Shown: positions 7,868 to 57,170, counted from the first letter of the stretch. The stretch is 64,000 bases of DNA from Candidatus Woesebacteria bacterium (GCA_021208605.1 JAJOJK010000003.1:9481-73480), one strand, 5' to 3'. Program-made: numbers and translations. The notes: a model not told the origin generated them from the letters alone.

Positions 7868-8551
7868 TTAATAATTTTGTTGCAGGGTATTGCGTACTTG
7901 AGTAATCGACATCTTTTGGCCATCCAAAAAGAACGTTGGTGTCGAGTTCAAACGAAGCTGTTCAGCAGCCCGCAAGTCTTCTGCTACACGCTCTTTTACG
8001 GCTTGACCGACATAATCGTCTTCAAACTGCTCTCCATCTAAACCAAGCTCTACAGCAAGTCCTAAATAGTACTCACTCGCATCAGTCAACTCAGACCACT
8101 CGGCTTGGCGAGCAAACAAGGCATCGTGCATTTCCCAGAACTTGCCTTGCATGGCGGCGGCCTCGCTGGCCCAGGCTGAACTTTCGGCATTTGGGTGAAT
8201 AGTGCGCAGCGGGTAGTGTCGATATACAAACGCCACGTCAGGATACTCTTCGAGAATACTTGCAATTTGTGGCTCCGTTGCAGCACAAGCTGGACACTGA
8301 AAGTCAGAAAATTCTACCAGCGTGAAACGGGCACTTTCGGTGGCGCCTTTGAGGTGGGGAGTCTCGGTCACCAACTGCGACTGATCACTCACTTCTTGCG
8401 TGGCACCGCTAAAGTCTTGCGAAAGGAAAAAGCCAATTCCAAAAATTAAGACGAGTGTTCCCACAAGTGTGGCGATAAGGAGTTTTACATTTTGCATTCG
8501 TTTCCTTTCTTTCTGGGTTACGTCCTTATAAGTAAGGGACCAACCCTTCAT
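7868..8551 (-). CDS. thioredoxin-fold DsbA-like thiol:disulfide oxidoreductase (membrane-anchored)
   Basis: FSDFQCPACAAT CxxC motif and an N-terminal TM helix. The true start is probably M19 (8497), because the first 11 codons of the track ORF are the translation of the type C repeat. Confidence 0.7.
   Translation of the reverse strand: MKGWSLTYKDVTQKERKRMQNVKLLIATLVGTLVLIFGIGFFLSQDFSGATQEVSDQSQLVTETPHLKGATESARFTLVEFSDFQCPACAATEPQIASILEEYPDVAFVYRHYPLRTIHPNAESSAWASEAAAMQGKFWEMHDALFARQAEWSELTDASEYYLGLAVELGLDGEQFEDDYVGQAVKERVAEDLRAAEQLRLNSTPTFFLDGQKMSITQVRNTLQQNY
8518..8548 (-). repeat. hairpin repeat type C (AGGGTTGGTCCCT + TACTTATAAGGACGTAA) 5' of dsbA-like start
   Basis: The gene-sense strand reads AAGGGTTGGTCCCTTACTTATAAGGACGTAACCC. 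The same module occurs at 33151 and 57140 directly upstream of start codons. Confidence 0.55.
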
Positions 8552-8559
8552 TCGATTTT

Positions 8560-9321
8560 TTAAAAAAACTTTTCTAAATGAATATGTTTCTCTTCTACAC
8601 CTCTCTTCAGCAGAATGGCCTTGGAGTCTTCAATCATACTCGAACCGCCGCATAAGAAAAAGCCAGTTTTCGATATGTCGGCAAATTCGTGAGCCAGCAA
8701 GACATCGGTCACCCGACCACTATCGAGTGGCCAATTGGCGGGCGGCTGAGACAGCATGGGTCGAAACGTAAAGTTAGCGTGCTGCTCGGCAAGCTGCGTA
8801 AATTCGTCATACCAGAACTGGTGCTCGGCATGGCGGAGACCCCAGACTAAAGTGATTGGGCGCGTGTCAGCGTCATCCACTAACAAATCTTCAATCATGC
8901 TGCGAAATGGCGCGATACCTGAGCCAGTGGCCACAAACCACAATTCTGATTCTTCCTGACCCAACACGCTATCTAGTCGAGGCACTGTAAAGCTTCCCAC
9001 CGGCCCCATAAACTCAATTTCTGCGCCAAGTTCCAGACCGCCCAAATATCGTGTCGCTTCACCTTGCGGCCGTAAATCAACGAGCAACTCAATGGCGTGC
9101 TCCAAATCTGGTTCTGAAGCAATGGAGTAACTGCGACGATACGGAGTACCAGGAACCGTCAGTAAAACATACTGTCCGGCCGTAAACGCAATTCGCGGCG
9201 GCGCTGAAAGCTCAAAGTGGTACAACGTGTAGATGTCGTTATAGATCTGCTTTTCGGACAAACGCGCCGAAAACGTCTGGATACGCGGGGCAACTGTGGC
9301 GGCGGCAGGGGTATTTGTCAT
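8560..9321 (-). CDS. FAD/NAD(P)-binding oxidoreductase, ferredoxin-NADP reductase family
   Basis: RRSYSIAS (RxYS FAD-binding motif), GSGIAP (NAD(P)-binding) and the C-terminal EKF typical of the FNR-like family. Confidence 0.7.
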   Translation of the reverse strand: MTNTPAAATVAPRIQTFSARLSEKQIYNDIYTLYHFELSAPPRIAFTAGQYVLLTVPGTPYRRSYSIASEPDLEHAIELLVDLRPQGEATRYLGGLELGAEIEFMGPVGSFTVPRLDSVLGQEESELWFVATGSGIAPFRSMIEDLLVDDADTRPITLVWGLRHAEHQFWYDEFTQLAEQHANFTFRPMLSQPPANWPLDSGRVTDVLLAHEFADISKTGFFLCGGSSMIEDSKAILLKRGVEEKHIHLEKFF

Positions 9322-9403
9322 AGTGGACAGTATAGCAAGTTCTCACGTTTCTCGAAGTCAAGAATCTACTCGGATGAGAAATATTGATGAATCAACACAT
9401 AAT

Positions 9404-9451
9404 GCACTACACTGAGTGGTGAAGATGTAAGTATAGCACCACATGTAGTGC
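9404..9451. promoter_or_regulatory. nested inverted repeat in the divergent promoter region between the FNR-like gene and the beta-CASP gene
   Basis: GCACTACA-ctga-GTGGTG-(15 nt)-CACCAC-a-TGTAGTGC. An 8+6 bp nested stem in a 268-bp AT-rich intergenic region. Confidence 0.3.
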
Positions 9452-9589
9452 AAAGACAGAGTTGTTTTCACTATAGGTTTTTCTTATTATCGAGCTGATG
9501 CAGTCAAAAAAAAACTATAAGCTTCAGAAATTTCACTGCAATTTTACCTAGTCATATGAGTCAAAAAACAATCTCTCTCTGTTCCATCC

Positions 9590-12500
9590 ATGCCGCCCGC
9601 TGAAACAAGAGATGGACAGCCATTTCTCGAGTCCGATTCGTTTCACGCCCTCACTCGGCTACGACCTGAAGAAATGGAGACAATAGACCAAATCTTTGCC
9701 TTAGCAGGTCTCCAGATTACCATTTTCCCATTAAAAAACGGAAATCTCTACGCCCTGTTTTACAATGAACTCGGCACAATTCAAGCTATCGATGCCAGAA
9801 CTCTTACTCAATGTATCGGTTTTTTCGTGGGCGCCAGCTCAGACTCACAACAAAATGCTACTGCTATTCATCAGAATCACACCGAACTGCAAAGTGAAGT
9901 GCAAACAATCAACCCTGAGTGGCAACTGCCAATTTTTAACCGCCTCTTACTCCTGGAGATTACGCAATCCCTCATATGGGAAATTTTCACTTCTATGCAT
10001 GATCTCAAGCCATCGGAAATAGAGGGTTTCAAGTATATTTTGGAGCATTACCACTATTATTTAGACATCAACTTTGGGAAAAATGGAGACAAGGCCCGTG
10101 GCCTTTTTTTTATGAATCCAGCCGCAACACCCGGAACGATTCCTCTCGAAAATGGTGAGCAGCTGGCCGGATTCGTATTACCACAAGATAACGAACGTAC
10201 TCAAAAACGCTGGCAAAAAACACTCGAAACTGAATTCTATGAAGCTACGGGGGAAAAAGGAGTTTTCTTCCCACCAGGAAAAGCCAGTGTGCTTCCTCTT
10301 TTGCAACAGTTTACTGAAAAAACACGGGGTGTTTCTCGACAGCATCCGGCATTTCTGGAATCAGAGTGGCAAACTGAGCGTCTCCGCCTGAGGGAAGAAG
10401 TTCGGCACTATTTATCACGCTTTTTCCAGCCTTATGGTATCGAGGTGCTCGACACCGCGCAGCTTATTCCGCACCAAAACCGAAATACCGAAAATGGTTC
10501 TGAATTCGTGGTAAATCGATTTCCGATGGCGGATTTTCTGTTTGTTGAAGCAGAAAAAGATACGGTTTCACTCACTCCTGTCCCGCTCATTGGTTGGAAA
10601 GCGGCAGCAGACAAAGGCCAACTCCCAACCGAAGTCACTATCTATGGAGGTGTTGGGGGAATTGGTATCGTGCCCAATACCGCTGACCTATCGGATCGAA
10701 AAACGTTCATGCGTTTAGCCAGTGGTGAGCTGCGCAGGTTTAATCCCACGCTACAACCTCATCTGGCAACTCATCCAAGCATCTTGACCGTCGACGAACG
10801 ACTTCTGCAAAAATGGCAAGAACTCGGCTCACCCATTCCAACCGAAACCGAGATTGCCCATGTAGTAGGGAGTCAGACCAGAAAACGCTCTCGTGACTAT
10901 GGTCTTGATATTCGCTCGTCAACACCACCTATCGTAGAGCTCCATCTCTACGAACCAAACGGTCCTGGTCTCTGGAACGGGCAAACAACCATGGTAGCGC
11001 ATCGTGACTCAAAAAATGCCAATGCCCTTCTTCTCGACGCAAGTTGGCCCCTAAACATTCCAATCTGGGCTCCAGGAGGAGCGAATCACTCCTATAAGGA
11101 AGGCATCGCTCCTTTTCTTGAAAAAAAACTCCTTGACCTTATTCCTCGCCTCTACAACTCTGAAGCACTCATCAATTCCATCAATACGGGTGTGCTCACT
11201 CGGGTCATGAAACTTGTTCACTCTCGCACCGATGAATATAAATACAAGAGTGTCGATGAGTATCTCCTGCTTGAAATCTACCACCGTTTTCAAAAAGATG
11301 GCCTGATCCAAATATTGCGTGAACAAGCTCGTAACCTCACCTACCAACTCATCAAAAGCGGAGAAATTGACCACCTGCTTCGCTATCTCGAGGAAAAAGA
11401 AGCTACCATCTATGGCAAACGCAAAACTCTCTATGATGGGATAGCACTCACGCATGCCCATGGAGACCACACAAAAACCAGTGCGCTTCATCGTCCTGAA
11501 ATCGTTCGCCTGAGCTCCCCAATCACCTGGGCTTTCTTGCGCGCGGACCATACCCTTTCGTATGATTGGGTAGGCCAAAGCACTGCAGTCCAACGCCTCC
11601 GAAAAATGCCCAAAGTGGGCAACAGCTATCCAGTCCTCGAATATCCTCATGTTCCACTAAACGATGGACAAACCTACGAAGTATCACCCGATATTTTTCT
11701 TACCGCTATTGCGGTTGATCACATTCCCGGAAGTATGGGTTTCCATATTGAAGTAAAACACAACGGACGCACTATTCACCGCATTTCCTATGGCGGAGAC
11801 ATGCGAGATACCCGTTTCTACCAGAAAGTACGTGAACTTGGAGGTACCGACTTACTGATTATGGAAGGCACGCATTTGCCAAAGGAGCAATATAAAGGCA
11901 AACCTATTCCTACAGAAGAACTGGTTGAAGTGCAATTAGACCAGGAAATTGCGAACGCTGGAAGCAATGCAATTGCTATCAACATCACCAGTCGTGACTT
12001 TAAGCGTCTGCACAGTATTCTTACAATTGCGCAAGCCCGCGGGCGCACGGTGATTATTTCTCCCAAAATCTTGTCGCAGTACCTAAAGTTACAAATGAAT
12101 GTCAAAGATGTTTTTCAGTCTCACTATCAAGATATTCCCGTTATCCCTATTGATGATCCCTTGATCCGCTCATGGCAGTCAGAAAAAGACACTTACACAT
12201 CAGAAGAAAAACATATTTTTCAAATTTTTAAACCCATTCAACCGCAAGATATTAACGCTGATCCACAACACTATCTGCTCATTCGTGAAGAAGAAGCCCC
12301 TCAGAAAATGGATGGTATTGGGCCCAATCTCGTCTGGATTAACTCCGCCGGCACATCTCCTGAAGTAGAACGCTACCAGAAATCATACGCTGAACAACGA
12401 GACTGGAGATACGTTTCTCGCGGCGTACGGGCGTTAGGCCACGCACCGCTTTTAGAGCCAGAGAATGATCCTCATAGCACCGGAGTGCTGGCACAAATTC

Positions 12501-12984: not shown

Positions 12985-13046
12985 AAAGAGGAGCAGTTGC
13001 AAATTCTCCCCATCTCCTGGCTTAATCGTGTTACAATCACCCCACT

Positions 13047-14477
13047 ATGGCGTCCCGTTTAGAAGAAATGATGCAAGCTCGACGCGATGTACGTGAGGAC
13101 ATGCTCCAAAATGGCACGAATCCGTACCCGCAAGAGGGGCATCGCACCCACACCAACCAGCAAGCACTTGATCTCGCTGATGGTAAGAAGGCCACCATCG
13201 CCGGCCGCGTGCGAGCCATGCGCGGACACGGAAAAATCCGTTTTGTTGACGTCCATGACGAGTTCACCAAAATACAAGTCGTCTTCAAACAAGACGAAAC
13301 CGCTGATTTTGCCGCCATCAAAAACTTCCACACCGGCGACTTCATTCGCGTCACCGGCGAGCGCTTTACCACCAACGCCGGCGAAGCCAGCTTGCTGGCG
13401 CGCGAGTTCGACATGCTTTCCAAAGCGCTCCGCCCGTTGCCAGATTCCTGGTACGGCTTTTCTGACGAAGAGGAACGCTATCGCCGTCGTCCGGTCGACT
13501 TAATCATGAATCCAGATGTGGCTGAAGTTTTTCGCCAACGCAGCAAGATTATTCAGTCCGTTCGCCAAACTTTGGATGAGCACAATTTCTTAGAAGTCGA
13601 AACCCCCACCCTGCAACCCATGTACGGCGGCGCCAACGCTCGCCCGTTTGTGACTCACATTAACGCCTGGGACATTCCGCAATACCTGAAGATTTCTGAC
13701 GAGTTGTATTTGAAACGCCTCATCGTCGGCGGCTTCGAGCGCGTCTACGAGATCGACAAAGACTTCCGCAACGAAGGCGTCGACCGCACGCACAATCCAG
13801 AATTCACCATGATGGAATGCTACGCCGCCTACTGGGACTACAACGACATGATGACCCTGACCGAAAAAGTCTACGAGAACGCCGCTATCGCCATTCACGG
13901 CACTACCGAAGTGGAATACCAAGGAATGAAAATTGATTTCCGCGGTCCTTGGCGCCGCTTACCCATGAAAGACGCCATCCGCGAGTACTTGGGAATCGAT
14001 GTTGATGAACTCAGCGACGACGAACTCCGCGCCGCCATCAAAGACCACAAACTCGAGTACGAAGGCGAATGGATTCGCGGCCTCGGCATCGCCACGCTCT
14101 TTGAAGCGGTGGAAGAACACTTGATTCAGCCGGTCTTTATTACTGATATGCCCCGCGAAACCACTTCTCTGTGTAAACCACACCGCGAAGATGCTTCTTT
14201 GATTGAGCGTTTTGAACCCTACATTGCCGGCTGGGAAGTTGGCAACGCTTACACCGAGTTGAATGATCCCGTTCTGCAACGCCAATTCTGGGAAGAAGAA
14301 CGTGACGACGATGATGAAGCACATCCCCTCGACGAAGACTTTATCGAGACTCTGGAATACGGCATGCCGCCAACTGGTGGTTTGGGCATGGGACTGGACC
14401 GCATGGTTATGTTGCTTACGAACCAGACTAAGATTCGAGATGTTATTTTGTTCCCGACGATGAAGCCGAGGGAATAG
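13047..14477 (+). CDS. lysS: lysyl-tRNA synthetase, class II
   Basis: Full-length class II LysRS: N-terminal OB fold, motif 2 FRNEG, motif 3 region GGLGMGLDRMVML. Confidence 0.92.
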   Translation: MASRLEEMMQARRDVREDMLQNGTNPYPQEGHRTHTNQQALDLADGKKATIAGRVRAMRGHGKIRFVDVHDEFTKIQVVFKQDETADFAAIKNFHTGDFIRVTGERFTTNAGEASLLAREFDMLSKALRPLPDSWYGFSDEEERYRRRPVDLIMNPDVAEVFRQRSKIIQSVRQTLDEHNFLEVETPTLQPMYGGANARPFVTHINAWDIPQYLKISDELYLKRLIVGGFERVYEIDKDFRNEGVDRTHNPEFTMMECYAAYWDYNDMMTLTEKVYENAAIAIHGTTEVEYQGMKIDFRGPWRRLPMKDAIREYLGIDVDELSDDELRAAIKDHKLEYEGEWIRGLGIATLFEAVEEHLIQPVFITDMPRETTSLCKPHREDASLIERFEPYIAGWEVGNAYTELNDPVLQRQFWEEERDDDDEAHPLDEDFIETLEYGMPPTGGLGMGLDRMVMLLTNQTKIRDVILFPTMKPRE

Positions 14478-14494
14478 GTGAGGGACCGACCCTC
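14478..14494. repeat. REP type A variant (GTGAGGGACCGACCCTC), left arm of inverted pair
   Basis: Perfect 17-nt inverted repeat with 14651-14667. Immediately follows the lysS stop codon. Confidence 0.6.
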
Positions 14495-14640
14495 AAGCTT
14501 TTAATAATTTCTTATAAGCTTTTACAATAGGCCAAAAGCAGGAATTTGCATCATACGTTCCGTCTTGCCCTTCGAGTAGCTTACAAGTACACACTTGGAT
14601 ACATACAAATTTCAGTCACAGATTGCTTTAAAAATGATTG

Positions 14641-15204
14641 TTATAGGCCTGAGGGTCGGTCCCTCACCTGCTTTCTCCCGCTTAGCCACAGCGCCAGCGC
14701 AAATCGCACTAAATACGCATACGCTTCTTCCCGCGGAATCACGCCCTCAGTCAGGTACCCAAACATACCGCCCTGTTGATTGGTGTTCGTTTTCCCTTCA
14801 ATCTTGTCCATTACTTTCCCGAGCTCTTCGCCGGAGGCGAGTCCATCGACAATATACTGCGGCAGAGCGAAGCGGTTTCCAGCCAGGCTTTGTTGTTTGC
14901 CCGCGCGATCCTCAATATGTACCCAGACAATCGACTGTAACTCTTCACCAACAGACATCAAACCGCCCTCGAGTCCGAAAGCCATGTCCACGCTCGGGTC
15001 TGCTTCCAGAACAGCCAGTGCGCGATTGCGGGCACCTTGGCGCGTTTCGTCATCGGAGTACGGCTGATCGCTGACGCCACTCTCGACTGAGTATCCCTGG
15101 ACTTCATACTCAACAGACTCTCCCCGTCTGGAAAACACAAACTCCACCGCCGACTGCACGGCCGCCACTTTTACTGGATTGGTACTTCCCACGCCTATCT
15201 TCAT
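14641..15204 (-). CDS. yjjX: inosine/xanthosine triphosphatase, YjjX family
   Basis: MKIGVGSTNPVKVAAV...SGVSDQPYSDDETRQGARNRA matches YjjX family signatures. The start ATG at 15204 overlaps the sufU stop (ATGA). Confidence 0.75.
   Translation of the reverse strand: MKIGVGSTNPVKVAAVQSAVEFVFSRRGESVEYEVQGYSVESGVSDQPYSDDETRQGARNRALAVLEADPSVDMAFGLEGGLMSVGEELQSIVWVHIEDRAGKQQSLAGNRFALPQYIVDGLASGEELGKVMDKIEGKTNTNQQGGMFGYLTEGVIPREEAYAYLVRFALALWLSGRKQVRDRPSGL
14644..14667. repeat. REP type A (TAGGCCT-GAGGGTCGGTCCCTCAC)
   Basis: TAGGCC palindrome plus AGGG-TCGGT-CCCT hairpin. Overlaps the last codons of the YjjX-like gene. Confidence 0.6.
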
Positions 15205-16869: not shown

Positions 16870-16896
16870 GAGTGTAGTATACCGTGGGATAAAAAC

Positions 16897-16926: not shown

Positions 16927-16936
16927 TCAAACATTA

Positions 16937-18445: not shown

Positions 18446-19031
18446 ATGTCCAAATTCATCTTCATCGGCCTCGGAAATCCTGGTGACCAATACGCCAACA
18501 CACGGCATAACGCTGGTTGGCTCGTGCTCGATGAGCTAATCAAACTGTGGCAAGATCCGGCCATTCCGGCCGCGTGGCGGTATGAGAAAAAAAATTTACG
18601 GCGAGGTACTCAAGCTGACACATGGACAACACGAAATCATGTGCGTCAAACCGGATACCTACATGAATGAGTCCGGTCGAGCTGCTTTGGCGGCCGTCAA
18701 ATGGTTTTTCGACATTGACCCAACGACTCGTGACCAAACACCGCTGCGCAATGTTGTTGTCCTGCACGACGATCTCGATATCGTCACAGGAGAATACAAA
18801 CTCAAATTTGCTTCTGGGCCACGAGTGCACAACGGTTACAACAGCGTGACGGAAGTGTTACATACCAATCAGTTTTGGTCGGCGCGCATTGGCATAGACT
18901 CCCGCGAGGGAGATCGTTCCATGCCTGGCAAGGCGTATGTCCTGCAAAAAATGCAACCAGAAGAACGCCAGAAATTACGCCAAACCGCCAAAATACTGGC
19001 TGAAGAACTCCCCTACGTCGTGCTACAGTAA
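18446..19031 (+). CDS. pth: peptidyl-tRNA hydrolase, frameshifted at an A8 tract
   Basis: N-terminal [25 protein letters not shown] (track ORF 18446..18670) continues in the +1 frame (ORF 18582..19031: IYGEVLKL...PDTYMNESG...). The frames join at AAAAAAAA 18587-18594. A7 would give a continuous Pth. Confidence 0.75.
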
Positions 19032-19036
19032 AAAGC

Positions 19037-20276
19037 ATGTCTTGGCGCAGTAGCTTTCACGAATTTTCTCGGCATCACGCCCTGCCACAGGAGCTGCGGC
19101 ATTTTTTCTTTGGTATTTTTTTCTACCGTTTAGGTGCCGGTTTGATTTCTTTGACCGGCCCACTGTTCCTTTTTACGATCGGCCAAAACTTTCCCTGGCT
19201 GCAAAATGTGCCTTTGAACACAGTGTCAAAAGGTCTTTTTTTTGTGTTTGCGTCCTATCTTTTGGAACGGTTGTGGATTCTCCTGCTCACCCAACCGATT
19301 GCACGCTGGATTCCCCGCATCGGATTCCATACCAGTATGGTGTTAGGACTCTTATTTTTATCCGCCCGCACTGCGCTGTTTGACTTCTTTTTGCGCGTCC
19401 CGAGTTTATGGCCGTTAGCAATGCTCTTGGCGGCCCTTGGTGTGCAGTTCTTCTGGATTGGATACCACACTTACTTCACTCTGGAAGCAAAAAGTTCGAA
19501 AATTGGCAGTGAAGTGGGCGGCATTGAGTTTATGTCTCGTTTGGCTCAGGTGTTGACCCCACTTCTTGGAGCACTTATTGCCGGCACATTTGGATTCGCC
19601 GTTTCCTTGTGGACCGGTATCGTGCTCTATGGAGTTGCCATTGCTTTCTTACTGCACTTACCGAAACTACAGTCCAAATATTCTTGGCAGTGGAGTGATT
19701 TCTGGCAGTGGCTCACTGACCGTGACCTGCGTCGAACCACCTTGGCCTTAGCTGCGTACACTTGGGAAGAACTTGGCGTCATCGTCTTTTGGCCCATATT
19801 TTTGTTTATTACTTTCGGCAACGTGGAGTCAGTGGGGTATATTTTGTCGACCGCTTCTTTTCTGTCTTTACTGTTTATTTACTTGTCCGGTTGGGTTTTC
19901 GATCACAAGAAAAAAACGTATCGGCAGCATTCAAAAAATGAGCGGTATTCTCCTCAGCTTTTTGTGGATTCCGCGACTCATTTTTGCTGGTTCGCCAGTA
20001 GTGTTGGTGCTAAACGACGCCATTGATCGACTCACACACAGCGTCTATTCAACACTGTTTTATGCGTCCATGCTCTTTTGCGCGCGGGGCAAACATGTCT
20101 ATCGATTTTTTGTAAATCGCCAAGTCGCGATCAGTCTCTTGTGGAGCGTTTTATTGTTGCTGAGCATGGCACTCCTCTTCCTGCACTGGAACTGGATACT
20201 CCTCTTTGCCAGTTTCTTTGGAGCCGGTATGATGAGCTTACTCTTCACCAAAGAAGTCAAAAAACTCAAACTGTAG
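19037..20276 (+). CDS. MFS-type transporter, frameshifted at a poly-A tract
   Basis: Multi-TM protein split between track ORFs 19037..20026 and 19773..20276 (+1). Frames can be joined at A7 (19910-19916) or A6 (19933-19938). Confidence 0.6.
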
Positions 20277-30255: not shown

Positions 30256-30420
30256 AAAAATATTGCAGGCCCACTAGGATTTCACGACTCCGTTCGCTCC
30301 CGCGAACTCCGCATGCACTAGGGTTGTTTCGCATTTCTTCTATTTCGGTATGCTCACCCCGTCGGAACCTTGTAGCTCCCAACCTCTGCGCACCAGCCAA
30401 TAAAAAAACCGCCGATGGCG
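30256..30420 (-). mobile_element. tRNA-linked ~145-bp element, copy 2
   Basis: Exact 18-bp duplication of the tRNA-Trp 3' end (gcaggcccactaggattt at 30255-30272, identical to 30423-30440). Same conserved core (30273-30356) and a terminator hairpin (A7-ccgccgatggcgg-T6) at 30392-30419. Confidence 0.6.
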
Positions 30421-30494
30421 GATTTTTTACTGGCAGGCCCACTAGGATTTGAACCTAGACGAAGGGTTTTGGAGACCCTCATGCTACCGTTACA
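30421..30494 (-). tRNA. tRNA-Trp (anticodon CCA), 3' CCA encoded
   Basis: AGGCTCA/TGGGCCT acceptor (one G-U), anticodon arm AGGGT-CTCCAAA-ACCCT, T arm CTAGG-TTCAAAT-CCTAG, discriminator G then CCA. Confidence 0.8.
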
Positions 30495-30712
30495 TCATGA
30501 GCCTTTGGCTTCGCAGGAGTGTGGCAGCAGTCACAGTACTGCAATCATTTGGCCGGGCACTCGACGCGGAAGTCGTGATCCGTATTGTAACACGCAAGTG
30601 AGAGTTTCAGACAAAACACGGGTGTTCTCTTGACCGCAACACAAAGAGTTTGTTTCAGGACAAACAAAAATGTTTTTAGTGTTTCACTTAATTTGCTTGG
30701 TATACTTAAAAA

Positions 30713-31540: not shown

Positions 31541-33147
31541 AAACGCAAACGTGTCCACTGCACCATATCGCGCGCCTGCTCATAGTTCACCACCCAGCCG
31601 GTTTGGCGAATGCTCTTGTAGAGTCCCTGGCGGAAAAAGTCGCCTTGATCGTTGTAAACTTCAGGATATCCGCGGTAGCGCTTGATGTTGTAGGTGTAGG
31701 CCTCAATCTGGTCTTGGGCTTGCTGGATGTAGATTTCATCGCCGGTCACTTGCGCCAAGTGGGCTAAGAGCTTGGTGTACTCCATTCCCCAGTGACTCCA
31801 GATGGCGGTCGAGGCATAGGTCGGCGCGATCAGTCGAACCGGCAAATAGAGCTGCCACGAGCGCAAATCAGGGTGGTACTGCAGGCCAAACGGTTGGTCG
31901 ATGGCGTTTCTTTGGATATAGGCTACCGAGCGCTCCAGGTAAGGCAAATCTTCTGGATTTTCTGGATCAAGAAAGCCTGTCTGATACGCAATCATCCAGT
32001 CAGATGAGTAATATTTGTTTTCAAGTGATTCATCACTCAAATCCTCTCGGAAAAAGCCGTCTTCGGGCAACCAATAGGCGTCGAGAATGCGTTGCTTGTA
32101 GTTGTCTAAAAAGGCGGGATCTTGCTCTATGACTTCGAGCTGTTGGAGCAGTTGAGCAGTCCGCCAAAAGACGATGTTGTCGTAGAGCGCACTTTCGCGG
32201 TGCACAATGTCTTTCGTGCCGGACAGGCGGATGTCCTTGCGAATAAAGCCTGTCTGCTCATCGTAGGCGTAGTCATAGTAGGTCTGCCAGTGACGGCGAA
32301 GGCTGTCGGCGTAGGTGGCTTCGAGCTGCGCGGCGGCGGTGGCGGTTTCGAGCATGACCAGCTCTTTCGCAGGGTCTATCCTTCCGTTATAAGGATACAA
32401 GTCAACTAACGTTTCTTCATCCTGCATCACCTGTAAAGCAAAAACCAGGCTGTACAAGGTATCGGACGGCAAATCGTAAATGTTCAGCAGAGCAACCGAG
32501 CGCGGACCAACCGGCACAATTGTGGTCGAGAGGCGATCTGATTTGCTGTACACCTGCAGCGCATAGGCCGTAGTTTTCAGGTAAATATGCTGGCGATTTT
32601 TCCAGTCGAGATCATCCAGCGCGGTGCGCCGATCCAACAAAGAATGGTAGAAAATTCCCAAAGAACGTGGATATAAAACACTGAAATGATCGCCTGAAAT
32701 CAAAAATGGTTCAGCGGGATCAAACCGATCAGCATGAATTTCCCGGATGATTTCATCAACTTTACGCTCTTGCGCTTTCTGCCCGCCCGTAAACTTGCTG
32801 GAAACAATGTGCCACCCCGCCTTCACCTTGGCTAGCTGACTAAAAAACGGACTCTCGCGCACAAATAAGTTGTCATTTTCCTCGAGTGTAAACATACCAT
32901 TTTCGTAGACCACCTCTTGGTACGGATCAACCACAATTGAAAACCGTACAAACGGATTCGTGATGTAGGAAAATATGGCGACTACTAGCGTGGCGGCGAT
33001 CAACGACCGCTGCAGCCATTTTCGGCGACGGTTTTTCGGTGACCACACAGCCTGACTGAGCTGACGAACTCGCCGCCGAGCCTTCTTGCCGAAAGTGCTC
33101 GGCGTCCACGGCACGTTGAACACTTTGTTTTTGAGTTTTTTTTTCAT
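31537..33147 (-). CDS. membrane-anchored protein with large extracytoplasmic domain (possibly a six-hairpin glycosidase-like fold)
   Basis: N-terminal TM LIAATLVVAIFSYI. 536 aa. The start codon is immediately preceded by the type C repeat. Confidence 0.4.
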   Translation of the reverse strand: MKKKLKNKVFNVPWTPSTFGKKARRRVRQLSQAVWSPKNRRRKWLQRSLIAATLVVAIFSYITNPFVRFSIVVDPYQEVVYENGMFTLEENDNLFVRESPFFSQLAKVKAGWHIVSSKFTGGQKAQERKVDEIIREIHADRFDPAEPFLISGDHFSVLYPRSLGIFYHSLLDRRTALDDLDWKNRQHIYLKTTAYALQVYSKSDRLSTTIVPVGPRSVALLNIYDLPSDTLYSLVFALQVMQDEETLVDLYPYNGRIDPAKELVMLETATAAAQLEATYADSLRRHWQTYYDYAYDEQTGFIRKDIRLSGTKDIVHRESALYDNIVFWRTAQLLQQLEVIEQDPAFLDNYKQRILDAYWLPEDGFFREDLSDESLENKYYSSDWMIAYQTGFLDPENPEDLPYLERSVAYIQRNAIDQPFGLQYHPDLRSWQLYLPVRLIAPTYASTAIWSHWGMEYTKLLAHLAQVTGDEIYIQQAQDQIEAYTYNIKRYRGYPEVYNDQGDFFRQGLYKSIRQTGWVVNYEQARDMVQWTRLRF

Positions 33148-33150: not shown

Positions 33151-33182
33151 TTACGTCCTTATAACAGAGGGTCTGACCCTAT
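33151..33182 (-). repeat. hairpin repeat type C (AGGGTCAGACCCT + CTGTTATAAGGACGTAAGCA) directly 5' of start codon
   Basis: The sense strand reads AGGGTCAGACCCTCTGTTATAAGGACGTAAGCA-ATG. Confidence 0.55.
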
Positions 33183-33880: not shown

Positions 33881-33902
33881 AGGGACCGACCCTTAGGCCT
33901 AG
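33881..33902. repeat. REP type A (AGGGACCGACCCT-TAGGCCTAG)
   Basis: Canonical copy. Confidence 0.65.
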
Positions 33903-33916
33903 AACAAAAAAACCGC

Positions 33917-33934
33917 GGCCTAGGGGTGTCTCCC
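33917..33934. repeat. REP type B (GGCCTA-GGGGTGTCTCCC)
   Basis: Perfect 18-nt inverted repeat with 35299-35316. The pair brackets the glycosyltransferase gene. Confidence 0.65.
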
Positions 33935-35268
33935 TACTTCATCGTACGCACAATTTCCCGCGCCCCGCGATAAAACTCCGGCGGCATCAAGCGAGCCTTT
34001 TCCAAAGCCGACTCCAGCCACGGCTTTTCCAGCGAGCGATCCATAATGTGCTCGAGTTGTTCCTCGACTTTGCCGTCACCAGAATCCACAACCCGCGCCA
34101 CACCGCTCTGCGTGAACATCGCCTGGATATTCACCTCCCACTCGCCCCACGGCTTCAACAAAAGTACCGCACAACCGGCACCCACGGCGTCATACGCCAT
34201 GTCGCCAGATGGCTTGGTAAAGACCACATCCGCCCATGGAAAACCATACGCTAACAGCAAGTTATTCGCATCCACAATATCCTCGGAAGAAATCACGCGC
34301 AGAGCGGCATTTTTGTCGCTCACGTCTTCAGAAATACTCACGCCGTGGAACTTTTCCACAACCTTTTCCACCATGGCAACATGATCCAAATTTGTGCCAG
34401 CATAATATATAAGCTGCACTTTGTTGTGCTGTCGCCGTCGCGTCAGGGGCACCAACTGTTTCAAGATAGACTCCAGCTCTCGCTTGTTTGTACCGAGTCC
34501 ACCCGTGGTCAACAAAATTCGCAGCGGCCGGCGACGCCAGGAGTCGGTTCGTTTGTGCTTGGCGGCGGCCAAAACACGTGGGTCAATGGGTGGACCGGTA
34601 ACAATAACGCGTTCGGGGTCGACTTTTTTGCCATGGGCCGAAGCGACCTCAAAAAATTCATAGCGCGTTTGTTCGTCAAAAACACAAAAGGTGATGTTGG
34701 AAAGGTGGGCATTCTGAACGTAATCCGGACGCACATGCGGATCGGTGACCACCTGCACAACAGTCTTGCCCGCTTGCGCCAAAATATTACCGGTCACAAT
34801 GTGAAAGGACAAAACTGGCTGACGGACATTTTCAAACAAATGCAAAAGTGGTGGCGTGATTTCGTCTGCTAAGGGGAATTTCTGCCGACCAATCGTATCA
34901 AGCACATTTTTCTTCACCCACTCGAGAAGTGAGTGCCGCGCCATCAACCGGCCAAGTGTTTCACTCATGGCGACGCGCTTCCAGTCACTATGCTGGACAT
35001 AGTTGGTGGGATCGACCATCCAGGCTTTCTCCGGCTGCGGCGAGTCCCCATCCCAGGCGACAATGCCTGCGGCCAAGGCCATCGAATAGTGCGCTCGCGA
35101 AAACACCACCTCCTGGTGGTCAAATTCGTCGTCCAAACGATACTGGTCTTCTAAGAGATCTCTGTATGAGGCAGAAATGGTCACTATGGGAAGTTTGGTC
35201 TTCTCGAGCAGCATTCGGTCGGCTGCTAGAAGCTTTTGCGAAACTTCGTCGACGAGGGAGTTGGGCAT
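33934..35268 (-). CDS. glycosyltransferase, GT28/MGDG-synthase-like
   Basis: 444 aa. ..RILLTTGGLGTNK.. is a C-terminal-domain Gly-rich loop. GT-B-like organisation. Confidence 0.5.
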   Translation of the reverse strand: MPNSLVDEVSQKLLAADRMLLEKTKLPIVTISASYRDLLEDQYRLDDEFDHQEVVFSRAHYSMALAAGIVAWDGDSPQPEKAWMVDPTNYVQHSDWKRVAMSETLGRLMARHSLLEWVKKNVLDTIGRQKFPLADEITPPLLHLFENVRQPVLSFHIVTGNILAQAGKTVVQVVTDPHVRPDYVQNAHLSNITFCVFDEQTRYEFFEVASAHGKKVDPERVIVTGPPIDPRVLAAAKHKRTDSWRRRPLRILLTTGGLGTNKRELESILKQLVPLTRRRQHNKVQLIYYAGTNLDHVAMVEKVVEKFHGVSISEDVSDKNAALRVISSEDIVDANNLLLAYGFPWADVVFTKPSGDMAYDAVGAGCAVLLLKPWGEWEVNIQAMFTQSGVARVVDSGDGKVEEQLEHIMDRSLEKPWLESALEKARLMPPEFYRGAREIVRTMK

Positions 35269-35298: not shown

Positions 35299-35319
35299 GG
35301 GAGACACCCCTAGGCCTAT
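35299..35319. repeat. REP type B (GGGAGACACCCC-TAGGCCTAT)
   Basis: Inverted partner of 33917-33934. Confidence 0.65.
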
Positions 35320-35335
35320 AAAAAACAAAAGCCCC

Positions 35336-42981: not shown

Positions 42982-44445
42982 TTACTTTCTCAGTCTGTTC
43001 AATACGAGGGCGTAGTCGATGATATCGACGGTGCCGTCTTGGTTGATGTCAGCTTGGGCATCGGTGGTCAAGAGACGACGACGGATGTATGACAAGTCGA
43101 TAGTATTCACTTTGCGGTCACGGTTCGCGTCATAGTTAGCTCTGAAAGGTGGCTCTGGCGTTTCTGACACACAGCTCTGTACAACTGGCTCCGGTGTACC
43201 GAGACAGTAGTTACTGTTGGCGGTGGCTTTACGAGTCTGGATGCCAGACTTACAAGCAGACCACTGCGTGTAGGTGTACTCACACGTCGGAGTATTTTGG
43301 GTGATCATCGGAATAGGACGCGTGGTGGCAACTGGAATCGAGCCATCTGGATTTGTCGGAACTAGTCCGACTGGCGGAGTCGGTCGCAAACGGATAGAGT
43401 TATCACTAATTGTGGTACTTGGCGGAGTTGGCTGAGGAGTTGGAGACACCGACCCAGTAAGAGCACAGATTTGGGCTGGCATTACTTGAGCACAAGCCAA
43501 GCCATCAGGACATTCTGGCATGGGTGGCTGGTAACAAAACAGGCCTGGTTGGCAATCCGCATTTACAGAACAGTACTGTCCTTCTGATCCCGGAGCTGGT
43601 GTTGGGGTGGGTGCAGCCGTGGGTGATGGAGTGGGATCGCCGGGAGTAACTGGGTTTTCCGACACGATAGGAGAAGGTGTTGGAGTAGGCGTTGGCGTCA
43701 TGCGTGGATTCTCGATCGGATCAACCATTGCAATTGGCGTGGGCAGTGGTTGTACTTCTCCATCGATTACTTCAGCACAGATTTTGGCTGGCATCACTTG
43801 CGCACAAGCCATACCTTCCGGACATTCTGGCATGGGTGGCTGATAGCACACTAGACCAGGAGCACACTGTGAATCTTGCACACAGTTGCTTCCGGCTGGC
43901 TTTTGAATACTGACGATGTCATCGGATCCGAGTACCCGACCAGAAAAGGCGACTGGTGTCTTCAGTTGGTCTTCAGTTTGACGGAAGAGAGTTGCTTTTG
44001 AGGTACCTGGGTTCCAGGTAAGCGACAAATCTCCTTCAGACTGCGGCACAAAACTGATGGTAGCAATTTGTGTCGGTTGAGAAGCGGAAAAGGCTTTTTT
44101 TGAATTATTCAGTGTAAATACGAGTTGGATGGTGCCGTCGTCATTGACTTTGTTGACTTGGGCTTTGAGATTCGTGCGCTCGGCGTTCGCAACTTGGACG
44201 GTAATATCGCTCACGTCAACTCCGGTGAAATTGCCTTCCAGTTGAAGGGCATCCATGTTGGCGCTGTTGGAGTTTACAAAAAGATCAATTTTTGCCGGCT
44301 TGCCAGCAATGATTTGCTCGGAAGATTTGGCGGTAATTTCTATGGCGCCATCTTCTACCGAAGCTTGGTTGCGCACATCTTGAGAACTTTGGGATAAAAA
44401 GAAGGCAGCGGCAGCTCCGATCAATAAAACGAAAACAAAGGCCAC
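42982..44445 (-). CDS. surface protein with cohesin-like N-domain, two 37-aa Cys-rich repeats and C-terminal dockerin
   Basis: Type I dockerin repeats DANRDRKVNTIDLSYI and DINQDGTVDIIDYALV. Duplicated C(V/S)xxxxCxPGLxCYQPPMPECPxGxACAQVMPAxICA module. PTPTP linkers. Confidence 0.6.
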   Translation of the reverse strand: MAFVFVLLIGAAAAFFLSQSSQDVRNQASVEDGAIEITAKSSEQIIAGKPAKIDLFVNSNSANMDALQLEGNFTGVDVSDITVQVANAERTNLKAQVNKVNDDGTIQLVFTLNNSKKAFSASQPTQIATISFVPQSEGDLSLTWNPGTSKATLFRQTEDQLKTPVAFSGRVLGSDDIVSIQKPAGSNCVQDSQCAPGLVCYQPPMPECPEGMACAQVMPAKICAEVIDGEVQPLPTPIAMVDPIENPRMTPTPTPTPSPIVSENPVTPGDPTPSPTAAPTPTPAPGSEGQYCSVNADCQPGLFCYQPPMPECPDGLACAQVMPAQICALTGSVSPTPQPTPPSTTISDNSIRLRPTPPVGLVPTNPDGSIPVATTRPIPMITQNTPTCEYTYTQWSACKSGIQTRKATANSNYCLGTPEPVVQSCVSETPEPPFRANYDANRDRKVNTIDLSYIRRRLLTTDAQADINQDGTVDIIDYALVLNRLRK

Positions 44446-44586
44446 TCCTGCTATAAGGCTTTTATTTTTTTTTTACAAAATTGACTGATTTTCATAGGTA
44501 CACTAAGAATTGCATGCTCCGAAATGGAAGTCAATATTGAGAACGCGTTGGAAATTTGCCACTAAAAACCTCTAAGAAAATTTTAA

Positions 44587-44607
44587 CGGCCTAAGGGTCG
44601 GTCCCTC
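44587..44607. repeat. REP type A (GGCCTA-AGGGTCGGTCCCT-CA)
   Basis: Directly downstream of the pgk stop. Confidence 0.65.
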
Positions 44608-45670: not shown

Positions 45671-45691
45671 TAGGGAGCACCCTTGGGCCTA
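45671..45691. repeat. REP type A variant (AGGGAGCACCCT-TGGGCCTAT)
   Basis: Degenerate copy between ribokinase and pgk. Confidence 0.45.
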
Positions 45692-45696
45692 TAAAA

Positions 45697-46652: not shown

Positions 46653-46677
46653 GTGAGGGACCGACCCTTAGGCCTAG
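46653..46677. repeat. REP type A (GTGAGGGACCGACCCT-TAGGCCTAG)
   Basis: Canonical copy. Confidence 0.65.
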
Positions 46678-46690
46678 ATAATTAAAATGC

Positions 46691-46710
46691 CGGCCTAGGG
46701 GTGTTTCCCG
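46691..46710. repeat. REP type B variant (CGGCCTA-GGGGTGTTTCCCG)
   Basis: Adjacent to a type A copy, as at 33881-33934. Confidence 0.5.
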
Positions 46711-46713
46711 AAT

Positions 46714-48610: not shown

Positions 48611-48642
48611 AGGTGTGTTTTCTCTCTTTTGTTGTCTTTTTA

Positions 48643-48664
48643 TAGGCCTAAGGGTCGGTCCCTC
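48643..48664. repeat. REP type A (TAGGCCTA-AGGGTCGGTCCCT-C)
   Basis: Canonical copy. Merges into the 8-bp tandem array. Confidence 0.65.
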
Positions 48665-48765
48665 TCTATCTCTCTATCTCTCTATCTCTCTATCTCTCTA
48701 TCTCTCTATCTCTCTATCTCTCTATCTCTCTATCTCTCTATCTCTCTATTTCTCTATCTCTATAC
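48663..48765. repeat. tandem repeat (TCTCTATC)x~12.9
   Basis: Ten perfect 8-bp units, one variant (TCTCTATT), one more perfect unit and a partial unit. Lies between the rpiB start and the VIT-family stop. Confidence 0.9.
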
Positions 48766-49524: not shown

Positions 49525-49581
49525 GACTTCAGTCTACAGAATTTATTGCTATTCACCAAATACCTCAGTAATTCTCAGGTA

Positions 49582-49932: not shown

Positions 49933-49938
49933 AGATTC

Positions 49939-51747: not shown

Positions 51748-51774
51748 GGTTAGTCTAGTGTAGCAGACTTGGTA

Positions 51775-51797
51775 GAGGGACCGACCCTTAGGCCTAG
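51775..51797. repeat. REP type A (GAGGGACCGACCCT-TAGGCCTAG)
   Basis: Canonical copy. Confidence 0.65.
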
Positions 51798-51849
51798 AAA
51801 AATAAAATGGCGGACAAAAAAACTCACCAACTCAAAAAGAAACACCGTT

Positions 51850-52959: not shown

Positions 52960-53072
52960 TTACTGTAACATAATTCTTGCAGTGATTGCAATAATGAGTG
53001 GGTGCGGTGGTGGAGATTTGGCGGATTTTTGGTTAGGGTTTTGGTTGGAGTTTTGGCCAATAGATATTTTTT

Positions 53073-53096
53073 CTAGGCCTAAGGGTCGGTCCCTTT
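53073..53096. repeat. REP type A (CTAGGCCTA-AGGGTCGGTCCCT-TT)
   Basis: Supplies the stop codon and the last six codons (EKGTDP*) of the Nnr-like gene. Confidence 0.65.
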
Positions 53097-54122: not shown

Positions 54123-54144
54123 GCGACCATTGTCTCGCAAATGG

Positions 54145-55178: not shown

Positions 55179-55200
55179 GGGGAGACACCCCTAGGCCTAT
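55179..55200. repeat. REP type B (GGGGAGACACCCC-TAGGCCTAT)
   Basis: Perfect 22-nt inverted repeat with 55297-55318, spaced 96 bp. Abuts the recF start codon. Confidence 0.65.
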
Positions 55201-55296
55201 ATCTTTTTTATTTTCTTTAGTATATCTCAAGAGGGCGCGTTATTGGCAGATTCGTTAGGATGAAAAAATGAAAAAAGCGCTGATAGTATTGGAGTT

Positions 55297-55318
55297 ATAG
55301 GCCTAGGGGTGTCTCCCC
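55297..55318. repeat. REP type B (ATAGGCCTA-GGGGTGTCTCCCC)
   Basis: Inverted partner of 55179-55200. Lies 9 bp from the lepA stop. Confidence 0.65.
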
Positions 55319-55326
55319 AGACTCAG

Positions 55327-57126
55327 CTATCTCTCCAAAACCGCCATAAAAGCCTCTTGCGGCAAAGAAACTCGACCAATTTCCTTCATCCGCGCCTTGC
55401 CTTTTTTCTGTTTCTTCAGCAACTTGTCTTTCCGAGTCTGGTCACCACCATACAGCTTCGCCGTCACGTCCTTACGGAAGGCCTTGACCGTTTCGCGAGC
55501 CACAATCCGGCCCCCAATCGTGGCCTGAATCGGCATCTCGAACTGCTGACGAGGAATCACTTCCTTCAATTTTTTCGCAATCGCGCGGCCAATCGACTCA
55601 GCCTGATCGCGCACCACAATTTGTGACAATGCCTCAATTTCTTCATGCTGCACCATGATAGATAGCTTCACAGCATCAACCCACTCATAGCCAGTCACCT
55701 CGTATTCCAGAGAAGCAAAACCAGAAGTCACCGATTTCAGCATGTCATGAAAATTCACAATCAGTTCAGCTAAAGGCATGTCGTAGACAGCCCGTACGCG
55801 CGTGCCGACATCAATCACCTCCAATAAATTACCGCGCCGGCCTTCGCACAACTGCATCACCGCGCCTAAGTAATGACGGGGTGTAAAGATAGTCGTGCGC
55901 GTCATTGGTTCATAAATCGATTCGATCATGGCCGGATCCGGGAGTTCGCTGGCGTTGTTGACGCGAATGCGTTGACTGGGTTCATCGCCAGTACCACGCA
56001 CTTGAATTTCATATGGCACGGAAGGCGAAGTCGCCACCATCTCCAGGCCAAATTCGCGCTCCAAACGTTCTTGAACAATTTCTGCATGCAAAATACCCAA
56101 AAAACCTACACGCATCCCGTTTCCGAGAGCGTGAGAGTTTACGCCTTGGTACTGCAAAGCAGCATCGTGGAGCTTTAATTTATTCAGAGCATCGGTCAAA
56201 AGCATGAAGTCGTCGCCATCAATCGGGTAAAATTCCAAATAGACCATAGGTTGAGGCTCTTTGTAACCGGGTAACGCCGTTACCTTGTCAATGGTATGCG
56301 CCTGGGTAATCGTGTCACCCACTTTCACCAAATCGACATCTTTCATGCCGGTAGCAATATAGCCTACTTCGCCTGCTTTCAGAGACTCTACTGGACGGCG
56401 ATCCGGGCCAAAAAAGCCAATTTCCGTTGGCGTGAAGCGCTGGTGTTGCGCCATCAGCATTAAGCTTTCGCGCTTGAGCTCGCCTTCCATGACTCGCACG
56501 TAGGCAATCACGCCTTGGTGCGTGTCATACAAAGAGGTAAACACAAGTGCGCGGAGGGGTTCAGCAGCTGGTTCCGGCGCCACGGGCAATCGAGTGACGA
56601 TCGTATCCAGAATGGCATCGATATTCTGACCCGTCTTCGCCGACACGGCCACAATGTCTTCTTCTTCAAAATCGAGCGTCTCCATAAGTTCGAGTGTGGT
56701 CGACTCAACATCGGCCACTGGCAAATCAATTTTGTTCAAAACCGGAATAATCTTCAAACCGAGCGCTTTAGCTTTTTCGTAGTTGGCTAAGGTTTGCGCC
56801 TGCACACCTTGCGTAGCGTCGACTACCAACAATACACCTTCACACGCGGCTAAAGAGCGAGAAACTTCATAACTAAAGTCCACGTGGCCAGGTGTATCAA
56901 TTAAGTTAAGCTGTACTTTTTCGCCCGTTTGCGGGTGTTTCCACTCCATGCGAACTGGCGCTAGTTTAATGGTGATACCGCGCTCCTGCTCGATCGGATT
57001 CGAGTCCATCAAGCGCTCTTTGAACTGGCGCTCAGTAATCGTGCCGGTGCGCAGCAACAACCGGTCGGTCAAGGTAGTCTTGCCGTGGTCAATGTGCGCG
57101 ATGATCGAAAAATTACGAATTGGCAT
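55327..57126 (-). CDS. lepA: elongation factor 4 (LepA)
   Basis: MPIRNFSIIAHIDHGKTTLTDRLL GTPase G1 motif and the characteristic LepA C-terminal domain. 599 aa. Confidence 0.92.
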   Translation of the reverse strand: MPIRNFSIIAHIDHGKTTLTDRLLLRTGTITERQFKERLMDSNPIEQERGITIKLAPVRMEWKHPQTGEKVQLNLIDTPGHVDFSYEVSRSLAACEGVLLVVDATQGVQAQTLANYEKAKALGLKIIPVLNKIDLPVADVESTTLELMETLDFEEEDIVAVSAKTGQNIDAILDTIVTRLPVAPEPAAEPLRALVFTSLYDTHQGVIAYVRVMEGELKRESLMLMAQHQRFTPTEIGFFGPDRRPVESLKAGEVGYIATGMKDVDLVKVGDTITQAHTIDKVTALPGYKEPQPMVYLEFYPIDGDDFMLLTDALNKLKLHDAALQYQGVNSHALGNGMRVGFLGILHAEIVQERLEREFGLEMVATSPSVPYEIQVRGTGDEPSQRIRVNNASELPDPAMIESIYEPMTRTTIFTPRHYLGAVMQLCEGRRGNLLEVIDVGTRVRAVYDMPLAELIVNFHDMLKSVTSGFASLEYEVTGYEWVDAVKLSIMVQHEEIEALSQIVVRDQAESIGRAIAKKLKEVIPRQQFEMPIQATIGGRIVARETVKAFRKDVTAKLYGGDQTRKDKLLKKQKKGKARMKEIGRVSLPQEAFMAVLER

Positions 57127-57139
57127 GTGTGTCTATTGT

Positions 57140-57170
57140 ACGTCCTTATAAGTGAGGGTTGGGCCCTTGT
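57140..57170 (-). repeat. hairpin repeat type C (AGGGCCCAACCCT + CACTTATAAGGACGTACAA) 5' of lepA
   Basis: The sense strand reads AAGGGCCCAACCCTCACTTATAAGGACGTACAATAGACACAC-ATG. Confidence 0.55.

Follow-up and report, generated by a model that had tools for sequence, protein, structure and literature searches.

Between unidirectional open reading frames (ORFs), repetitive extragenic palindromic (REP) elements lie near the 3' end of the upstream gene, and the genes of REP-associated tyrosine transposases (RAYTs) are flanked either by REPs or by unrelated terminal inverted repeats (TIRs) (PMC3733652, PMC6006769). Inverted flanking copies around a single RAYT gene define the REPtron or TIRtron arrangement (PMC6006769, PMC3733652, PMC3116915). 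In TIRYT/TIRtrons, RAYT-like genes carry TIRs unrelated to the GTAG REPs, and some of these TIRs are moderately abundant families (Di Nocera et al. 2013, PMC3733652). Here we describe a hairpin-plus-tail repeat, called type-C, in 64,000 nucleotides (nt) of DNA from a Candidatus Woesebacteria bacterium (GCA_021208605.1 JAJOJK010000003.1:9481-73480, hereafter the window), a member of the Microgenomates (Patescibacteria or candidate phyla radiation, CPR), where three copies precede start codons of unrelated genes. We assign a probability of roughly 80% to the reading that this module is a REP/TIR-type dispersed repeat family cognate to a RAYT and not a dedicated control signal; the best reading of its distribution is a family specific to one Microgenomates lineage. 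A text search of the HUH survey for Patescibacteria, Parcubacteria and Microgenomates gave no mention (PMC6006769), and a literature search for REP/RAYT systems in Patescibacteria/CPR found no describing paper, only noise or one unrelated preprint.

The type-C unit comprises 29-32 bp, and all four copies in the window are intergenic. Three of them, c1 (8519-8547), c2 (33152-33180) and c3 (57139-57167), match the 29-nt pattern AGGGN5CCCTN3TTATAAGGACGTA on the minus strand. Their conserved tail, the 13-mer TTATAAGGACGTA, has exact matches on this strand only, at 8519-8531, 33152-33164 and 57139-57151, and is preceded by the hairpins AGGGTTGGTCCCT in c1 (8535-8547, stem 4-5 bp, RNA fold -4.1 kcal/mol), AGGGTCAGACCCT in c2 (33168-33180, 5 bp, -5.0 kcal/mol) and AGGGCCCAACCCT in c3 (57155-57167, 4 bp, -4.3 kcal/mol). 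The degenerate copy c4, AGGATCCAACCCT-TAC-TTATACGGACGTA, lies on the plus strand at 2844-2872 with two mismatches (nhmmer E = 3e-7), and its 13-mer TTATACGGACGTA (2860-2872) deviates at one position. Searching the 13-mer with up to two mismatches yielded four sites where 0.74 were expected, a number reached in 0 of 100 shuffles, and the 29-nt pattern with up to three mismatches recovered the same four sites against an expectation of 0.00. The hairpin AGGG-N5-CCCT alone occurs 13 times in the window (0.55 expected), and eight of these 13 belong to REP-A, a second repeat family. The sequence and coordinates of the module reported in the initial annotation were thus right with corrections, and the module had no match in any shuffle. 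The diverged fourth copy that it proposed is also real, but c4 runs opposite to the features on either side, tRNA-Ile(TAT) (2741-2815) and an ORF (2890-3549), which are both encoded on the minus strand.

An nhmmer profile collected 11 family copies from the window and its relatives (E 2e-9 to 1e-6), seven of them in the relatives L013, L014 and L024. Other candidates were discarded. An nhmmer match at 32368-32395 (+; E = 0.0013) within the gene for a 536-aa protein was rejected because the window protein has no insertion there and the match is underlain by invariant Y-P-Y codons of the protein family. The ten GTDB matches to CCCTN3TTATAAGGACGTA (L001-L010) come from unrelated organisms, lack the hairpin and are mostly in coding sequence, and a single IMG/VR match (L023) likewise has no hairpin; all were regarded as chance. 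The full 29-nt pattern had no match in the JGI metagenomes.

The assignment of the window to the Microgenomates rests on LepA homologues and on a 100%-identical NCBI protein (P0140, LRY58_01535) of a Candidatus Woesebacteria bacterium. The window was compared with relatives ranked by LepA identity, namely L013 (GCA_964447905.1, 92%), L014 (Logan SRR17161168, 92%), L024 (87%) and L025 (77%), as well as with L021, which stems from the same sample as L014; the Logan contigs L011 and L012 are nearly identical to the window. Orthologous sites vary at three places. Upstream of lepA the module is absent from all four relatives, L013, L014, L024 and L025. A CCGTATAAT box located 45-66 nt upstream of lepA is common to the window, L014 and L024, and GTACAATA, 8-9 nt upstream, is common to the window and L013, so that in the window c3 sits between these two native lepA signals. 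Between mscL and the orthologue of the 536-aa gene, L021 has a gap of 4 nt (TAA-CTCC-ATG) and no repeat, and the corresponding 48 nt of the window are essentially the repeat. Upstream of rpiB, L013 carries the type-C copy AGGGTCAGATCCT-CTG-TTATAAGGACGTA, the window a REP-A copy with an 8-nt tandem repeat, and L014 neither. Judged from these sites, the family moves or turns over between species that differ by 8% in LepA, and it therefore does not behave like a gene-specific leader.

Copies without orientation bias, which the initial annotation had named as the observation that would speak against a leader, are largely what the extended set contains. Seven copies precede a start codon in sense orientation (c1-c3, L013 19548, L014 18620, L014 21359 and L024 4388), three are antisense (c4, L014 13910 and L024 1910) and one, L014 19102, is convergent; the probability of at least seven sense copies among the ten informative ones is 0.17. 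The tail of the antisense copy at L014 13910 supplies the last codons of a carbohydrate-kinase gene.

Alignment of the 11 copies from four species revealed an invariant core, TTATA-N-GGACGT, together with a 4-bp stem core. Stem pair 11/21 is G-C in five copies and A-T in five, switching between species, and the covariation score of the stem was matched by only 15 of 500 shuffles; this switch indicates that the hairpin is kept as a structure. The three stem-adjacent nucleotides vary (GTA, CAG, GTG, CTG and CTA in reverse-complement reading), and the conserved motif is the 13-nt tail located 3 nt away. With energies of -4.1 to -5.0 kcal/mol as RNA and -2.9 to -3.4 kcal/mol as DNA for a stem of 4-5 bp, and with non-significant z-scores against shuffles for the RNA folds of the three intact copies (-1.5, -0.5 and +0.8), the hairpin is not the stable one that had been described. 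The suggested comparison of hairpin folding with Shine-Dalgarno (SD) pairing disclosed no conserved sequestering of AAGGA in c1-c3: the hairpin lies 8 nt upstream of AAGGA, and only in c1 does the minimum-free-energy fold pair part of the hairpin with AAGGAC. Rfam searches of the window returned tRNAs only and no match at the repeat.

The link to a transposase comes from the sister species L014. Here, 28-nt arms at 18604-18631 and 19091-19118 form an inverted repeat (96% complementary) around an ORF at 18668-19102, and each arm is a hairpin plus tail of the variant AAGGACTGACCTT-(T/C)AG-TTATAGGGACGT; besides this flanking pair, dispersed type-C copies are present at 13910 and 21359. The ORF encodes 144 aa and matches the full profile of Pfam Y1_Tnp PF01797 (E = 1.5e-4, 22.3 bits, cut-off 23). 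Its only NCBIfam match is REP_Tyr_transpos NF047646, the REP-associated tyrosine transposase model (E = 5.5e-8, below the 80-bit cut-off). The motifs YHxYNRG, HUH (H64, H66), GHLFQG and Y124..N128, the latter corresponding to the Y..NP catalytic tyrosine, are kept in the alignment. A phmmer search of PDB with the single sequence gave nothing meaningful, and the family profile had a single PDB match, E. coli TnpAREP (4ER8, E = 2.4e-8). All database homologues belong to PF01797, and the sources of several entries call them RayT or REP-associated tyrosine transposase. The inverted copies around a RAYT-type gene support the proposal that the module is a type-C REP variant containing an SD by chance.

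Two further features of this L014 gene were observed: its last codons and stop codon come from the right-hand repeat copy (…GTACGTCCCTATAA), and an extra AAGGACAGTCCTT hairpin lies inside its 5' coding region at 18697-18711. REP insertions within tnpAREP genes have been reported for one RAYT subclass (PMC6006769).

Relatives of the L014 RAYT are encoded at no fewer than 573 loci in one metagenome scan (at least 573), and this RAYT clade is abundant in CPR-type metagenomes. Among the 75 metagenomic loci for which both flanks were available, 46 have flanking inverted repeats scoring at least 12, compared to 4 of 75 in a control in which flanks were cross-paired between loci. Many of the arms are short hairpins of the AGG...CCT type, for example AAGGTCTGACCTT, AGGGTCTCTCCCTT and AAGGACTGTCCTT, and resemble those of the window; the same flanking pattern was seen at three further RAYT loci, L015-L017. 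Since the tail TTATA[AG]GGACGT is absent from 80 distant RAYT loci, we regard the 13-nt tail as lineage-specific.

Type-C thus resembles the E. coli REPs and bacterial interspersed mosaic elements (BIMEs) and the Pseudomonas REP doublets (REPINs) in being a short dispersed extragenic hairpin with an adjacent conserved unpaired motif, in having copies inverted around a single HUH/Y1 transposase gene (here in L014), in forming species-specific families with quick turnover at orthologous sites, and in the match of the L014 transposase family profile to the TnpAREP structure. Its layout near the upstream stop codon also corresponds to the published position (PMC3116915, PMC6006769, PMC3479197). 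It differs from them in that the GT[AG]G tag is replaced by the 13-nt tail TTATA(A/G)GGACGT 3 nt from the stem, in its 4-5 bp stem instead of typically 8 bp or more, in the occurrence of the window copies as singlets and not as inverted REPIN doublets, and in its host, a CPR genome of roughly the 1-Mb class with a RAYT that, in L014, is short. The tail read as its reverse complement, TTACGTCCTTATAA, contains CGTC and in this recalls the CGTC-tagged REPs, in which the tag ends an 8-9 bp stem that starts with A-T pairs and has a CCA-like tail, and for which no transposase is associated (PMC3733652). In type-C, about 10 nt separate the CGTC from a G-C stem of 4-5 bp; because of this different layout of stem and tag and of the RAYT association in a relative, type-C is not a member of the CGTC REPs. 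With TIRtrons it shares the 28-nt inverted repeat of L014, which has no GTAG, contains a self-complementary tract and is also dispersed singly. Published TIRs share GGGGWSAS or are mutually unrelated, and none has a TTATAAGGACGT tail (PMC3733652). The IS200/IS605 elements (IS608, ISDra2) belong to the same Y1_Tnp superfamily, and recognition of a hairpin plus a short single-stranded sequence is the likely common logic; however, the ends of these elements are not inverted copies and the whole element moves, whereas the type-C flanks are inverted and the repeat is dispersed gene-free, and the L014 transposase matched the REP-associated NCBIfam model only. Since type-C has neither the GTAG tag nor the CGTC-REP architecture, it is an atypical REP whose nearest known counterparts are the TIRYT-associated repeats of Di Nocera et al.

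On the model of E. coli TnpAREP and IS200/IS605, a RAYT-type HUH/Y1 transposase would recognise the short DNA hairpin AGGG-N5-CCCT and the single-stranded tail TTATA(A/G)GGACGT 3 nt away in the ~30-bp unit on single-stranded DNA, and would then cleave and rejoin the repeat, seeding copies into intergenic DNA. The AAGGA would simply belong to the tail of the repeat, and at c2 it may secondarily double as an SD, a role that we consider possible, if unlikely. We infer that the genome of the window itself has or had a cognate RAYT.

Several findings weigh against a RAYT-cognate repeat family. No RAYT gene was found in the window or in the 8.4 kb past its left end, and the link rests on a sister species whose repeat is slightly different, with a AAGGACTGACCTT hairpin and a TTATAGGGACGT tail. 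A tblastn search with the L014 RAYT found no second copy in the window, L013 or L014, and the protein database holds no close orthologue (>40% identity). Over the ~72 kb of the source genome that could be read, there are only the four type-C copies, with none in L018, the contig covering the 8.4 kb beyond the left end. The stem is much shorter than in classical REPs, and the type-C copies do not have the canonical GT[AG]G tag at the foot of the hairpin. Finally, the three intact window copies share one orientation relative to genes, and with seven of ten informative copies in sense a mild orientation preference, or selection for it, may exist. The minus strand encodes 45 of the 63 genes of the window and the GC skew is negative throughout, as fits a single replichore, and a replication-strand preference of single-strand transposition could equally yield three like-oriented copies.

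The position of the copies next to start codons must be seen against the gene organization of the window. Intergenic gaps have a median of 86 nt (quartiles 15-169), and at 46 of the 62 gene junctions both genes point the same way. An extended -10-like box TGnTAnnnT (for example TGCTACACT) that ends 6-9 nt before the ATG precedes many genes, and these have no SD; examples are found at 8560-9321(-), 13047(+), 17223(+), 19037(+), 25638(-), 42042(-), 46614(-), 48041(-) and 51747(-). A TANNNT box 5-12 nt before the first ATG was detected in 24 of 63 crude gene calls (8.6% of control ATGs), and the same box plus TGn in 13 of 63 (1.2% of controls); AGGA/GGAG-type SDs make up a second class with 14 of 63. 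The same -10-like pattern at gene starts is visible in L013 and L014. On the basis of these sequence patterns, we think that the data point to widespread leaderless transcription in this Microgenomates genome, and because many genes are apparently leaderless, they need no SD. Given the short gaps, the co-directional junctions and the many apparently leaderless genes, intergenic inserts will therefore come to lie at a distance of a few nt to a few tens of nt from the next ATG, and the start-codon adjacency of type-C is most likely mainly a by-product of tight gene packing.

The individual sites agree with this to different degrees. Copy c1 lies 3' of the stop codon of an FAD/NAD oxidoreductase gene (8560-9321, -) and 5' of a DsbA-like gene (identities from Pfam), its tail ending 21 nt and its AAGGA lying 27 nt from the likely ATG at 8497, which has its own AAAGGAAA SD 5 nt upstream. 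The longest-ORF call for the DsbA-like gene (7868-8551, -; 227 aa, ATG 8551) reads through the repeat; with the AAAGGAAA SD and an N-terminal hydrophobic segment, ATG 8497 is the more likely start. Of the 48 nt that separate mscL (33196-33606/33678, -) from the 536-aa gene (ATG 33147), copy c2 takes up the greater part, and its tail ends 4 nt and its AAGGA 8 nt before this ATG; the spacer contains no other SD and no -10 box. The label glycosidase-like given to the 536-aa gene was not confirmed, since the protein has no Pfam match and is a hypothetical protein at NCBI. The tail of c3 ends 12 nt before the lepA ATG at 57126, with an AAGGA spacing of 16 nt; the conserved CCGTATAAT box (~57193-57201) lies upstream of the copy, which borders directly on a TACAAT box located 8 nt before the ATG. 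A co-directional 135-aa ORF followed by a clear terminator is found upstream of c3. The upstream genes of c1-c3 (FAD/NAD oxidoreductase, MscL and the 135-aa ORF) are all co-directional. In the spacers of c1 (62 nt) and c2 (48 nt) a 29-nt insert could hardly be placed elsewhere; c3 stands 12 nt from the ATG in a spacer of 171 nt, so that only its position is mildly non-random.

An alternative that applies to individual copies and is compatible with a RAYT-cognate repeat is exaptation, in which a module of REP origin was retained because its tail was co-opted as a ribosome-binding site (AAGGA) and/or as a -10-like box (TATAAG). This would explain why intact sense copies directly before start codons have been kept; seven of the ten informative family copies are in sense. 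At c2, AAGGA lies 8 nt before the ATG and is the only such signal in the spacer. Because the orthologous gap in L021 is only 4 nt, the c2 insertion had to suit translation. SD-like motifs also precede about 22% of the genes, compared to 6.8% of control ATGs. At c1, however, the gene has an SD of its own and the AAGGA of the repeat is remote, and at c3 the spacing is long and the native lepA boxes TATAAT and TACAAT are common to repeat-free relatives. TATAAG moreover lacks the invariant final T of -10 hexamers, no promoter was called, and with three antisense copies the orientation bias is not significant. Taken together, we consider exaptation of the module unlikely, albeit with a genuine chance of holding for single copies.

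A role as terminator or mRNA-stabilising hairpin for the upstream gene is a classical secondary function proposed for REPs. The placement of c1 and c2, which begin 12 and 15 nt past the upstream stop codon, is typical of 'uni-REPs' (PMC3733652). Yet the stem of only 4-5 bp is not followed by a T-run on the sense strand, a terminator scan at the three copies gave a single terminator-like call, at c1 and on the antisense strand, and a genuine terminator is already present upstream of c3, making such a role improbable.

The initial annotation had also considered a promoter-proximal operator. Here, AGGG-N5-CCCT would be bound by a dimeric transcription factor and would lie within a promoter spacer, with TATAAG as -10 box, and it is true that in c1-c3 alike the 17 nt preceding TATAAG are exactly those occupied by the hairpin and that the window has 13 occurrences of this inverted repeat. 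However, the hexamers found 17 nt upstream (GAATGA, ATATAT and TGCACA) are no -35 boxes, and a scan for sigma-70-type promoters called none at the three intact copies. What is preserved across copies and species is pairing and not sequence, with differences in the loop and even in the stem, and the REP-A and REP-B copies with the same type of hairpin are distributed 7 to 6 between the strands, many of them at 3' ends of genes. Together with the RAYT association, the antisense copies and the lack of conservation at orthologous sites, this renders an operator very improbable.

A dedicated leader, in which the RNA hairpin would alternately expose and occlude the ribosome-binding site of a small regulon (the DsbA-like gene, the 536-aa gene and lepA), has in its favor the three exact sense copies 4-21 nt before starts and the c1 fold, but is scarcely tenable and already contradicted by the comparative sequence data, as the module does not accompany these genes in the relatives (LepA identity 77-92%), occurs in antisense and next to a transposase gene, folds no better than shuffles, has no Rfam match and leaves AAGGA unpaired with the hairpin in c2 and c3. 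Neisseria REP2 is dispersed immediately upstream of start codons and contains a sequence like a ribosome-binding site; it is longer, has reported promoter elements and is orientation-locked, in contrast to the type-C family with its antisense copies and RAYT association.

The window contains two further repeat families. In REP-A, no gap separates the tail T(A/C)TAGGCCTA from the hairpin AGGGTCGGTCCCT; copies are located at 14642-14664(+), 33881-33903(-), 44584-44606(+), 45672-45693(-), 46656-46678(-), 48641-48663(+), 51776-51798(-) and 53072-53094(+), and a hairpin alone at 14481-14493. REP-B carries TATAGGCCTA, the same tail as REP-A, on a different hairpin, GGGGTGTCTCCCC, and is found at 35299-35320(-), 55179-55201(-), 55296-55318(+), 33913-33935(+) and 46688-46709(+). 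Copies of both families often lie at gene 3' ends or just upstream of extended -10 boxes. The pair 14481/14652 forms an inverted REPIN-like doublet between convergent genes, the REP-B copies 55179-55201 and 55296-55318 form an inverted doublet that fills the spacer between lepA and the next gene, and REP-B is paired with REP-A at 33881/33913 and 46656/46688. A REP-A/B doublet of L013 lies at 11808/11919, and the REP-A family, which L013 has with the hairpin AGGGCCAGGCCCT, includes a doublet between lepA and the next gene there. These arrangements suggest a modular design of a conserved tail with swappable hairpins. The modular relatedness of type-C and REP-A, proposed in the initial annotation from the shared hairpin, is plausible: in both, the AGGG-N5-CCCT hairpin is combined with a tail that contains TTATA, and L013 21498-21545 is a composite of type-C and REP-A. 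Next to the REP-A copy in the spacer between VIT1 and rpiB lies a perfect tandem array (48662-48765) in which an 8-nt unit, CTCTCTAT (TAGAGAGA in sense orientation), is repeated about 12-13 times; the array is absent from the orthologous sites of L013 and L014 and may be length-variable.

Other repeats of the window lie outside these families. The tRNA-Ile gene next to c4 (2741-2815, -), predicted by ARAGORN and also recognised as a tRNA in the Rfam search, has the anticodon TAT (UAU). A tRNA-Ile with a UAU anticodon is an uncommon bacterial means of decoding AUA. Downstream of this gene and of tRNA-Trp (30431-30504), at 2577-2677 and 30264-30364 (minus), the layout is alike: after a terminator come some 40 nt of variable sequence and then an 83-nt block, which is followed by an 18-nt direct copy of the local tRNA 3' end and a T-run. 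The 83-nt block is 89% identical between the two sites, and its conservation is not protein-driven, the ORF of the second copy stopping after 34 codons. The blocks have no Rfam match, and Logan contigs break exactly at them. The arrangement looks like an att-type duplication around a mini-insert, or like the remnant end of a tRNA-targeting integrative element. An 87-nt direct repeat (43462-43548 and 43774-43860; 84% identity, 312 nt apart) lies within a dockerin-domain ORF (42982-44445) and is probably an internal protein repeat.

The identification of type-C as a RAYT-cognate repeat removes a tempting false lead, a conserved 'leader' common to dsbA, lepA and a membrane protein, and means that an ultra-small CPR genome carries several REP-type repeat families. 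For annotation there is a risk that such repeats are taken for regulatory motifs or become part of ORFs that are called too long, as in the 227-aa call at 7868-8551. The minimal hairpin-plus-tail unit would be a tractable substrate for studies of RAYT specificity, and c2 is a natural case for asking whether a REP insertion supplies a working SD. A broader and rather doubtful extension is a Patescibacteria-wide class of REP systems, defined by the repeat family and its short RAYT, in which minimal 4-5 bp AGG...CCT hairpins are combined with a 13-nt guide-like tail in place of GTAG, and whose AAGGA/TATAAG would repeatedly have been co-opted as a portable ribosome-binding site or promoter. If this were true, REP dispersal would directly rewire gene expression in streamlined genomes rich in leaderless genes, as at the 536-aa gene.

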